Position numbers: made by a program. From a virus (lineage: Duplodnaviria; Heunggongvirae; Uroviricota; Caudoviricetes), in the IMG/VR virus record IMGVR_UViG_2579778797_000011, positions 1-7,062 of that record: 7,062 bases of DNA. One strand, given 5' to 3'. Positions 3,001-6,000 of this stretch are shown piece by piece. Position 1 is the first letter of the stretch; each line of letters starts with the position of its first letter.

Positions 3001-6000
3001 CTGCTCCACCACCCAGCGGTCACTCAGCTCCTGCTCCGGGTCCGCCTCCGGATTGCCCGCAACGAAATTCACCGCATCCAGAAAACGGGCATACACCCGG
3101 CGGCGGACCACCGTGGCCCCCACCAGGCTCTGCAAATCCTCCGCCATCCCGGTGACCAGACCGAACAGATTGGACACCGTCAGCAACGGTCTGGCACTGC
3201 TGCCCTTCCCGCTCATCTCAAAACCGCTACCGTCAATCGGGTATGCCTGATATTGCCGCCCCTGCCAGGTGACCGGCTCCCCTTTTTCATTCAGCTCATT
3301 GCAGAAAAAATACCGCTCACCGCCCTGCACCGTCAGGTCGATTTCCCAGAGCACCACCCGCGGTGACTGCTCTGATTTAACCGACTCGTTCAGACTTTCT
3401 TCGTGAATATCCTGCATATATCCGCCCATAAAAAAGGGGCGCAGACGCGCCCCGAACAATAAAAGTCCAATTTAAAATAAAACCAATAAAGGTAATAACA
3501 GAAAGTTAAATCAGCACATACCAGATGGCAATTGCTGATCGCAGTGACCAATGAAAACTGTGTTTTCATTGATACAGGCCGCCTGTAAGGGCAGACGGCC
3601 CGTATTTATTAACTTATCAGCAATAATCAGAACTGATAAGTCATACCCACAGCAACGATATTATCTGTCGCAACACCGGCTTTCCGGGTAAATTCACTTT
3701 CATCAATCAGGTTAATTTTATAATCAACATAGGTGGACATATTCTTGTTAAAGTAATAAGTCGCTCCGACATCAATATATTTAACCAGATCCTGATCGCC
3801 ATGGTTCACACCACCAACCATAACATCCTGTCCGCGGGACTGAAGGTAGGCCAGGGACGGGCGCAGACCAAAATCAAACTGATACTGCAGTACCGCTTCA
3901 AAGTTTTGCGCTTTATCTGCAACTCCTTTATCACCAAAGGTCGTCAGATTCTGAGTTTCGGAATATGTTGTAGCCAGGTAAAGGTTGTCAGCATCGTATT
4001 TTAGTCCGACTCCCCACATCTCAGCGTGTTTACCTTTTGCAACACTACCGGAATCAACAACGATCTGCTTTTCAGTCACTTTACCGGTTAAAGGATCAGT
4101 TTGTTCAATCGTCAGAGTACCATTCAGACCTTTTTCCTGATTATTGGTTCGGTCCGCATTAATATATGCGGCAACGATACCAAAACCTTCATATTCATAA
4201 CTGGCTGAGAAACCGTGACCATCACCATTAGCTTTCCGGAGATCACCCCGATCATTTTTACCCTGGTACTGTGCCGCAAAATTCAGGCCATCGACAAGCC
4301 CAAAGAAATCTGTATTACGATAGGTTAATACCCCGGAAGTACGGGCTGTCATGAAGTTATCGGTCTGGGTCCAGCCATCACCGCCAAACTCTGGTAATAC
4401 GTCAGTATAAGAACCAACATCGTACGCAATACCATAGTTACGACCATAATCAATGGTGCCAAACTCACCAAACTTCAGACCTGCAAATGCAAGACGGGTT
4501 TTATTACCCGCAGCACCCTCTGATTCAGCTTTATTACCAGAGAACTGATATTCCCACTGACCAAAACCAGTCAACTGGTCATTAATCTGAGTTTCACCTT
4601 TAAAGCCCAGACGTGCGTATGTCTTATCTCCATCATCCCCCTTATCACTGGAGAAATAATGGAGTGCAGTTGCACGCCCATACACATCAAGTTTATTGCC
4701 ATCTTTATTGTATACTTCTGCAGCCTGCGCCCCCGCTGCAAAAATTACAGCTGCTGCCACAGCTGAAAGTGCCACTGTCATTTTTTTCATGATTTAATCC
4801 TTATTTAAACTGAACTATTCATGCATAGAGATGTCATGAACAAAACTCAAAATATTGTAAATTAAATTACGGGTTCAATTTTTATTTTGTTTCAAAATGT
4901 AAAAAAACAACTTTGATAGCACTTTATGTCAAGACAAAACAAAAATAACAAGCAAGCAAATTAATAAACGATGCTTTTAGGTTTTTTCTCAAAAACTTAT
5001 CTTATTACCTGTTCCATCATACAACTGAAATCACTGTACCTGGCGTTATCTGTAATACTCCACTCCCGGCACACCACCCTGACCGTCCGGTTATGTTTCG
5101 GGGGTTTCCACAAAAAGGCACGGTAACCACCATGCCACGATAAAAATTCATCCAGCCAGCGCCGGGTCGCCTCATCCGTCACCCGGAACACCGCCTGAAA
5201 TGTCTTCAGTCGGGCATTCAGTCCCGTCGGTCGGCGCTGTTCATAACCGTCACCAAACCGGACCCTCACCACCGACGGTTTCTCACTCACCTGCATCCCT
5301 TCACGCGGGACCAGATGCAGCGTTTTTATCTCAGCCACTCAGCATTCCTCCGTCTCGTCGCATGGACAGCATCACCGCCTGCACCCGCTGGTCAATCAGC
5401 TGAACAAGGCTGCCTGCCGCCTCCGGCCCTATCTGACCGTTGGCCCCGTCATTCTGAATGGCGATATGGTAGACCGGGGAATACACCAGACCGGCACTGC
5501 CGTTCATACTGCCCACCGCGCGTACACCCAGCGAGCCATCCGCCGCCCGGGTCAGGGGCATTATGGCTTCAGGTCCTGCTTCCCCCATCAGCCCGGCCCC
5601 TTTTGCAAAGGCAAAGTACGTGGGCGTATCCACAATACTGTTGCTGTACGCGCTCAGGTTTGCCGAGGTATACACGCCGCCTTTTGCATTGGCCACCGCA
5701 CCGCCCAGCCAGTCACCAATGCTGCCAATAAATCCTCCCGCACCGGACATACCGTTTGCCGCCGTCTTAATTCCGTTGACAATCGCGGCATTCATAAGAA
5801 CTTTTGATATTTCCTGCAGTACGGATGAGGCCCAGTTGCGCCATTCCACTTTATTCCCGTTCAGCATCTCCGTGATGTTATTCACCATCCCTGAGATACC
5901 CTCCGTCGCCAGCTGTGCTGCCTGTGAGGCGTAATCGGATGCACTGTCCACCCAGTTACTGAGCCCCTCCTGCAGCCCTTTCTGCCAGTCCGCACGTTGT

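Follow-up and report, generated by a model that had tools for sequence, protein, structure and literature searches.

The closest described systems to the one analysed here are the porin genes nmpC, of the cryptic prophage DLP12, and lc, of phage PA-2, together with the IpeX RNA that is linked to them (PMC3333887, PMC5069750, PMC12197685); the nmpC/lc 3′ untranslated region (3′UTR) has published repressor activity (PMC5069750, PMC12197685). The present subject is a stretch of 7,062 nt, positions 1 to 7,062 of the Caudoviricetes record IMGVR_UViG_2579778797_000011, referred to below as the window. Between phage tail genes M and L of the window lies an inserted cassette with a complete porin gene and a structured 3′UTR. 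A phage porin with an IpeX-type RNA is already known as a kind of system; distinct here are a porin clade with a long and variable surface loop L5, a fixed site in the tail operon, a 3′UTR unrelated to that of nmpC/lc by BLAST, and allele-specific predicted pairing with ompC and ompF. We think it fairly probable that the cassette is a porin-swap module, i.e., that the phage porin is expressed and its 3′UTR lowers translation of host OmpC and OmpF. That wording applies to the whole chain of steps, and we are much more confident of the porin cassette itself than of a function of the RNA.

The window is the tail region of a lambdoid (HK97/lambda-type) Escherichia coli prophage, with genes read on the minus strand in the order tape measure H, M, insert, L, second insert and start of K. 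The tape measure gene (5331-7025, minus strand) is upstream of M (4997..5338, minus strand; 113 residues; Pfam Phage_min_tail, E=5e-28), and M and L (2719..3417, minus strand; 232 residues; Pfam Phage_tail_L, E=7e-92) flank the porin gene directly, the location that had been given in a preliminary description of the window. The stop codon of M and the start codon of L share one base (cTGATGc) in L009 and L010, two phages without the porin. Homology to these phages ends within the last three M codons (at about 5006) and restarts exactly at the L ATG (3417); therefore the insert is 3418..5006 on the minus strand, a refinement of the earlier limits 3418-4996, which were essentially correct. The junction comparison also shows that the final three codons of M have been swapped for cassette sequence, and the ribosome-binding site of L, GGGCGGA, is contributed by the cassette. 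An open reading frame (ORF) finder places the start of L at TTG 3459 and so passes through a terminator. This is an over-extension, because the annotated L proteins of relatives have 232 residues, and the real start is ATG 3417.

The inserted DNA, about 1.6 kb, consists of a regulatory region, the porin gene, a structured 3′UTR and a terminator. Its guanine plus cytosine (GC) content also sets it apart: 0.32-0.37 in the intergenic part on either side of the porin gene and 0.41-0.47 within that gene, versus 0.56-0.64 in M, H and L. A moron, as Hendrix and co-workers are said to define it, has its own promoter and terminator and a composition unlike that of its neighbours, and is inserted between genes that are adjacent in relatives. 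The M-L overlap in L009 and L010 shows the two genes to be adjacent in related phages, and both the terminator and the low GC content are present in the cassette. For a promoter there are conserved blocks and an OmpR-box-like sequence, in a region where a consensus scan called none. The cassette is best read as a self-contained accessory cassette (moron) in the late tail operon.

The porin gene (3627..4790, minus strand) is an uninterrupted ORF of 387 codons, identified by ORF calling, Pfam and structure matches. The Pfam Porin_1 match spans profile positions 1-337 of 337 (E=1.3e-140; 469 bits vs a cut-off of 23.7), and matches to solved chains of OmpC, PhoE, OmpK36 and OmpF have E values of 1e-128 to 1e-109. 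Residue 24 aligns with residue 1 of the solved mature chains, and the signal peptide is thus residues 1-23; an AQA-A cleavage motif is found in the sequence, and the mature N-terminus has the form AE(V/I)YNKDGNK. The constriction loop L3 contains PEFGG. Arginines occupy the positions of OmpF R42, R82 and R132, and K16 is replaced by R, in the OmpF residue numbering that we take to mark the pore-lining positions. The C-terminus ends in TYQF, the aromatic C-terminal assembly signal. An AlphaFold2 model built with 38 homologues displays the expected 16-stranded porin pattern at moderate confidence (mean predicted local distance difference test score, pLDDT, 71; predicted template modelling score, pTM, 0.70). 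Judged by its sequence, the cassette encodes an intact, canonical general bacterial porin, which by its family would function as a trimeric diffusion channel. The earlier account of a complete porin with signal peptide and C-terminal YQF, free of frameshifts and stops, is borne out by the ORF, Pfam and solved-chain alignments; K-12 nmpC, in contrast, is inactivated by IS5. The ORF is intact in the window and in every relative examined, across 80-100% protein identity.

One surface loop departs from the known porins. Loop L5 (codons 214-254; 4029..4151, minus strand), delimited by alignment, the AlphaFold model and column conservation, is up to ~28 residues longer than in OmpC, OmpF or Lc. The model places it between strands 10 and 11 and gives it an extra hairpin at 224-245, with low confidence. 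Within the clade L5 is hypervariable in both length and sequence, with 12% of its columns invariant and many gaps, while elsewhere the invariant columns amount to 57-90% in strand segments (most of them at least 68%) and to 78% in L3.

The part of the cassette between the porin stop codon and the intrinsic terminator, a 3′UTR of ~200 nt (3430-3626, minus strand), was overlooked at first reading. It was analysed in an alignment of 10 distinct versions of the stretch from the porin stop to the L start. Three hairpins follow one another: hairpin 1 of 13 bp (3572..3605), hairpin 2 of 11 bp (3549..3571) and hairpin 3 of 7 bp (3509..3540), all on the minus strand, with compensatory double changes in 5, 5 and 2 pairs, respectively; the loop of hairpin 3 is 13 nt longer in the window allele. 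Next is a single-stranded stretch, the seed, UUAACUUUCUGUUAUUACCUUUAUUGG (3483..3509, minus strand), antisense to the ompC leader and unpaired in both the consensus and the centroid folds. The seed region includes UUUCUGUUAU, and its 10-nt core, UUAUUACCUU (3489-3498, minus strand), is invariant in the 10 distinct 3′UTRs. The element closes with an intrinsic terminator, GGGGCGC-GUCU-GCGCCCC + U6 (3430..3453, minus strand), with 7 GC pairs and a 4-nt loop, and its end is 3 nt ahead of the ribosome-binding site of L; apart from one G-U in one variant, its stem does not change among the 10 variants. This is the strong terminator that had been placed just before L.

In the alignment 98.4% of cells are paired. 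The 12 compensatory pairs compare with 4.3 +/- 1.4 in column shuffles, none of 500 of which reach 12, and with 0-3 when the partners are slid. Read on the porin-sense strand, several pairs are A-U in some versions and G-U in others; the opposite strand would have mismatches there, and the many G-U pairs thus assign the structure to the porin-sense RNA. As a single sequence the window 3′UTR folds with z=-8.0. The stretch is found only together with the cassette (102 genomes) and is annotated in none of them. Rfam searches gave no credible match in the cassette, only chance-level ones (whole window at E<=1; 3400-3660 at E<=10). Several other candidates in this area were set aside. A long-range helix between post-stop bases and the L ribosome-binding region, seen in the RNAalifold consensus, has one covarying pair, possibly a reflection of lineage structure, and is left out. 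A stand-alone small RNA with an internal promoter was considered: a scan found no such promoter, and the TTGCCA of the hairpin-3 loop is missing in alleles without the 13-nt insert. A 59-residue ORF at 3390-3569 crosses the hairpins and the terminator into L, is broken by indels among the variants, and is spurious.

The seed of the window is predicted to pair with the K-12 ompC leader from -37 to -4, which covers the Shine-Dalgarno sequence, in a duplex of 28 bp (15 + 8 + 5) at -28.5 kcal/mol, with z about -5 to -6 vs shuffled seeds. Control duplexes calculated for known regulators gave -26.5 kcal/mol for MicC with ompC, -16.8 for MicC with ompF, -27.4 for MicF with ompF and -14.1 for MicF with ompC. 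With the ompF ribosome-binding region the window seed reaches -20.3 kcal/mol (z about -2.4 to -2.9), and with phoE, ompN, lc and the cassette's own leader no pairing was found (z -0.2 to +0.9). Natural 75-nt segments attain -28.5 kcal/mol in 4 of 6662 cases; the set includes the cassette's own antisense strand in six loci (about -47), and the four are presumably that strand. In 5340 of the 5426 E. coli genomes the identity of the ompC leader is 99% or higher, so that the target is always present in E. coli. A second seed allele, UUUUCAUUUUAUUACCUUCAU, accompanies the cassette type G1/2 and has the reverse preference: its duplex with ompF is MicF-like, with a 14-bp core over the Shine-Dalgarno sequence, at -24.0 kcal/mol (z -4.2 to -5.1), and its ompC duplex is weaker at -21.5. 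Thus the preliminary reading of the cassette as a porin moron stands, but it missed the complementarity of the 3′UTR to the ompC and ompF leaders.

IpeX is reported to lie in the region downstream of nmpC/lc (Castillo-Keller, Vuong and Misra, 2006). The downstream regions of K-12 nmpC (3′UTR at L105 1366-1529, minus strand) and PA-2 lc (3′UTR at L003 66-166, minus strand), which represent the classical IpeX region, are mutually identical; ipeX is unannotated in the RefSeq MG1655 record. The nmpC/lc 3′UTR folds (z=-9.9) into three hairpins, an unpaired U-rich stretch and a GC-rich terminator. Its unpaired stretch, AACCUUCUGUUAUAUAUUACCCUUUAUUU, is a near-continuous antisense of the ompC leader from -32 to -2, with a predicted duplex of -26.7 kcal/mol (z -5.7 to -7.6). 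A BLAST comparison of the M-L and nmpC/lc 3′UTRs reveals only 9-nt words in common. A covariance model made from M-L 3′UTRs only finds the IpeX position at 11 of 11 nmpC/lc-type loci (28-38 bits; E=1e-4 to 8e-3, by a rough calibration), and its best match outside porin 3′UTRs is micF, with 20.5 bits and E=0.27. By analogy we conclude that the M-L element would work like IpeX. It is probably a distant relative of IpeX; a convergence of the two 3′UTRs on the same target is possible.

The window cassette is a mosaic. From M through about porin codon 270 the window is 99-100% identical to the G1/2-type cassette, and from ~3900 onwards, across the 3′UTR and into L, its match is the L051-type cassette (98-100%); sliding identity places the recombination breakpoint inside the porin gene at 3850..3990. 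In the window, therefore, a porin body of G1/2 type, L5 included, is combined with the anti-ompC seed allele, while in G1/2 itself the same porin body is linked to the ompF-leaning allele. These identities indicate that porin bodies and seeds reassort.

Upstream of the porin gene, the AT-rich regulatory region of the preliminary description is present as a low-GC part with conserved promoter-like blocks; overlooked in it was an OmpR-box-like sequence, TTTACATTTTGAAACA (4888..4903, minus strand), an exact 16-nt match to the K-12 ompC upstream sequence at -179. The ompC sequence at that position is, we take it, the C1 OmpR-binding site. Within the box-like sequence TTTACATT is invariant in 15 distinct cassette variants. 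Since this sequence is common to the cassette and ompC, the porin is probably under EnvZ/OmpR control. A promoter-like block, ATGACA, a spacer and ATGAATAGTTCA (4811..4837, minus strand), appears as a footprint across the variants, with TGACA and part of the downstream block (GTTC) invariant in all of them, and a similar block is found upstream of PA-2 lc. Other invariant blocks in the 15 variants are part of ATTGAA and AATATTTT, and the AAGG of the porin Shine-Dalgarno sequence AAGGA (4798..4802, minus strand) is likewise invariant. A palindrome, TTGACATAAAGTGCTATCAA (4913..4932, minus strand), is partly conserved among variants and resembles K-12 ompC-micF intergenic sequence, which is weak evidence. 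A truncated micF gene or promoter in this region was rejected: beyond the OmpR-box word and this palindrome, the alignment to the K-12 ompC-micF spacer scores 63 vs a shuffle maximum of 61.

The porin had been described as NmpC/Lc-type, and this is approximately right. Its nearest named porins are PA-2 Lc and Salmonella OmpD, at 72% identity, followed by K-12 OmpC and PhoE (63%) and OmpF and OmpN (62%). The comparison with NmpC, Lc and OmpD that had been suggested earlier thus gives ~72% identity, but a neighbour-joining tree unites the window porin and its close relatives (80-97% identity) in a separate clade outside that group. The nearest sister in the tree is an island porin, P0087, and the NmpC/Lc/OmpD clade is next. 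With Salmonella OmpD and E. coli NmpC the window porin has in common a signal peptide of the MKK..SAVA..AQA type and the barrel core; the separate clade, with P0087 as nearest sister, is the difference. P0087 (L017-L019) is a 378-residue porin of a non-phage island, beside an insertion sequence (IS) element, a sulfatase and a TonB-dependent receptor, and it also has a long L5. The porin Ec042-2121 of enteroaggregative E. coli (EAEC) 042, described as a 'distinct lineage' (PMC2808357), may be of the P0087 type rather than the M-L type. Orthology to OmpC was rejected: the score to the NCBIfam model NF007841 is marginal (496 bits vs a cut-off of 484), the porin has 63% identity to K-12 OmpC, and in the tree it lies apart from OmpC and OmpN. 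The RefSeq label 'porin OmpC' arises because the OmpC subfamily model just exceeds its cut-off. The label is misleading in that it hides the phage-cargo nature of the gene, and the 3′UTR element has never been annotated.

The cassette is found in 110 of 5426 complete E. coli genomes (at least 80% coverage), or ~2%, and M, porin and L are contiguous in 92 of the 5426. Its carriers include E. coli G1/2, E. coli LZSFT34 and the strain of record CP091394.1. The exact porin protein is indexed in 478 blocks of a large assembly collection, among them 5-Mb chromosomes; one such chromosome is 99.0% identical over the full window. Among viral contigs, all 28 close relatives that have the upstream flank show M before the porin and L after it, and none of 51 nmpC-type porins (69% identity) lies between M and L. 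The two M types found in this arrangement have a mutual identity of only 44%, and the accompanying tape measure may be of the HK97 or of the lambda type. Phage-borne NmpC and Lc are positioned between Q and the lysis genes, with lc adjoining Rz in PA-2 and nmpC between quuD and essD in K-12; the window porin does not have this position. The M-L position is a stable, recurrent trait of a prophage lineage and is unusual relative to nmpC/lc. Comparative genomics of the junction, proposed in the preliminary description, thus upholds the view that the insertion site is unusual, but not as a one-off. Among the matches listed for species-representative genomes there is no member at 80% identity or above, the best being 69%. 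The literature searched contained no description of a prophage porin at M-L or in the tail region, nor of the M-L junction as a cargo site.

Two observations concern related positions. Locus L023 has an extra piece of ~110 bp between M and the porin (3645-3760), which starts like a normal M-stop/L-start junction (GGTGAACTGATGCAGGATATTCAT...); it looks like a remnant of the L 5′ end upstream of the cassette and could be a trace of cassette movement. In addition, 110 weaker porin-region matches are on plasmids, two of them of ~100 kb, and the phage-plasmid P7 (AF503408.1) carries an nmpC gene; the plasmids are suspected to be P1/P7-type phage-plasmids with an nmpC-type porin.

The porin-swap reading may be put together as follows. 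In the lysogen the porin would be transcribed from its own promoter, probably under EnvZ/OmpR control, and its mRNA would end in the ~200-nt 3′UTR with three hairpins, an unpaired U-rich stretch and a strong terminator, an end for which the comparative data argue. The terminator would keep porin transcription out of L-K-I-J in the lysogen. In lambda, Q-modified polymerase is expected to read through terminators in lytic growth, and late transcription antiterminated by Q would likewise read through this one. The seed, within the full mRNA or after processing, is predicted to pair with the ribosome-binding region of ompC and less well with that of ompF, and such pairing would block translation in the manner of MicC, MicF and IpeX and spare the cassette's own leader. 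The net effect would be a lowering of host OmpC and OmpF and their replacement by a porin with a different, fast-evolving L5. Receptors for OmpC/OmpF-dependent phages and colicins would be removed or changed, and permeability and antigenicity altered. More tentatively, and with somewhat less than even confidence, the M-L cassette may be viewed as a two-part, reassorting porin-replacement unit, in which a variable porin body is combined with a retargetable antisense 3′UTR whose alleles are tuned to silence ompC or ompF over the Shine-Dalgarno sequence. The window would then be a recombinant of such units, and classical IpeX would pair with the ompC leader in a similar, MicC-like way.

Several points weigh against the porin-swap reading. 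The 10 distinct 3′UTR sequences represent two or three lineages only, and a part of the covariation therefore counts inherited changes. The E values of the covariance model are rough, and much of its score is from the GC terminator. Duplex energies leave out the accessibility of target and seed as well as Hfq, and descent from an inverted porin leader could have left the complementarity behind as a relic. Promoter, 3′ end and processed RNA are predictions from sequence only. A simple sigma-70 consensus scan called no promoter upstream of the porin, although this is not surprising for a promoter that depends on an activator. The isolated phage genomes of a phage collection are without an M-L porin, which bears on the activity of the prophage; the best porin matches among them are of nmpC/OmpD type at 72-73%, located elsewhere in the genome and none between M and L. 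Finally, IpeX itself does not rely solely on complementarity, according to a review (PMC12197685), and pairing may not be the whole mechanism.

The same 3′UTR can be read without a regulatory function. The porin would then be the only cargo, the hairpins and terminator would stabilise the mRNA and insulate L-K-I-J, and the complementarity to ompC and ompF would be an inert relic. The strong terminator directly before L agrees with this, stable 3′-end hairpins commonly protect mRNAs, and the resemblance of the seed to the antisense of a porin leader is explicable by ancestry. However, the unpaired seed core is invariant while the adjacent bases and the hairpin stems vary, and both seed alleles keep a long duplex with a host porin leader, one preferring ompC and the other ompF; phoE, ompN, lc and the leader of the cassette itself show nothing similar. 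The analogous nmpC/lc 3′UTR, moreover, has the published repressor activity referred to above (PMC5069750, PMC12197685). We consider the porin-only explanation unlikely, though it deserves serious attention.

A different objection is that the porin may be silent or decaying, a cargo that hitch-hikes with the tail genes like K-12 nmpC or the quiescent ompN. The inactivation of K-12 nmpC by IS5 provides a precedent, and the absence of a called consensus promoter fits as well. Against this, the ORF is intact in the window and in all relatives examined (80-100% identity), the barrel and L3 are conserved while the surface loops vary, which is the pattern of a cell-surface protein, and the regulatory blocks are conserved across 15 variants. 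An LF82 lysogen expresses an nmpC-type prophage porin, an analogue and not the same gene, at ten times the background level (PMC9928086). Silent cargo is thus improbable. Least credible of all, to the point of being negligible, is the possibility of an assembly artefact, or of a chromosomal region, either OmpC or flanking DNA, outside any prophage tail operon. The NCBI pipeline label 'porin OmpC' and the OmpC model score of 496 vs 484 bits would favour it, but M, H and L flank the porin directly, a layout that recurs in more than 90 independent complete genomes, and with 63% identity to K-12 OmpC the porin is placed elsewhere in the tree, the true ompC being separately present in these genomes. 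Chromosomal flanking DNA, which the preliminary description had named as an outcome that would undo its claim, is thereby ruled out.

The window has a second accessory island between L and K (446-2662). It consists of an Ant-like antirepressor gene (446-1414), a small ORF (1411-1614) and a gene for an Arc-like protein (1611-1799), all on the minus strand, and on the plus strand of a gene for a divergent Arc-like protein (1836-2126) and one for a short ClpP-like protein (2126-2662), the latter with only 44 bits to CLP_protease. The ant/arc part is present at the L-K site in Shiga toxin (Stx) phages, and the pair of ClpP-like and Arc genes was seen only in some E. coli prophages. Rfam also gives a clear match to sar RNA (1349-1416, plus strand; 95.6 bits, E=3e-20), which in P22 is the immI antisense RNA; the match is antisense to the 5′ end of the ant-like gene. 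Thus a P22-type immI module lies inside a lambda-type tail operon. In related prophages (L011-L016) a Cu/Zn superoxide dismutase gene (sodC) is found between I and J and an Ail/Lom protein after J; these loci also have HK97-type head genes with a protease-capsid fusion and, at one locus, a weak Hok-like ORF.

If the porin-swap reading is correct, about 1 in 50 E. coli strains carries a prophage able to rewrite the composition of the major pores in one step, with a foreign porin of divergent outer loop switched on and OmpC and/or OmpF turned down through RNA on the same message. This would bear on phage and colicin receptors, including phage therapy and superinfection exclusion, on permeability to beta-lactams and carbapenems, and on antibody recognition of porins. 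In addition, the cassette suggests how IpeX-type regulators could work by base pairing, a clear model that can be tested with the two naturally occurring seed alleles.

As a combination of protein and putative regulatory RNA, the M-L cargo differs from lom, sodC and the ant/arc insert of Stx phages, with which it has in common the placement of accessory genes at gene boundaries of the late tail operon, their own signals and a lower GC content. MicC (RF00121) and MicF (RF00033) are antisense to the same ompC and ompF ribosome-binding regions as the M-L element. The predicted ompC duplex is similar or stronger in energy (-28.5 kcal/mol for the window seed vs -26.5 for MicC), and the element and the two small RNAs have words in common: CCUUUAUUG and UUUUAUUUU of the MicC 5′ end, and UUAUUACC of the MicF seed. 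However, the element is not a member of either family, the Rfam searches described above giving no match to RF00121 or RF00033 (whole window at E<=1; 3400-3660 at E<=10). MicC and MicF are stand-alone chromosomal small RNA genes divergent from porin genes (ompN and ompC), whereas the M-L element is in the 3′UTR of a porin gene on the same strand, and the predicted MicC site on ompC (-47 to -14 in the control) differs from that of the window seed (-37 to -4), which is directly over the Shine-Dalgarno sequence. The nmpC-ipeX and lc systems are closer. Both they and the M-L cassette are general porins borne by lambdoid phages with a promoter of their own, here putative, and with a 3′UTR of 160-200 nt that has three hairpins, an unpaired U-rich stretch antisense to the ompC leader and a GC-rich terminator. 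They differ in that the porins are 72% identical and belong to separate clades, with a long L5 insert in the M-L porin; in their sites, which are the interval from Q to the lysis genes for nmpC and lc and the tail operon for the M-L cassette; and in that the M-L family has two seed alleles with differing preference for ompC and ompF.

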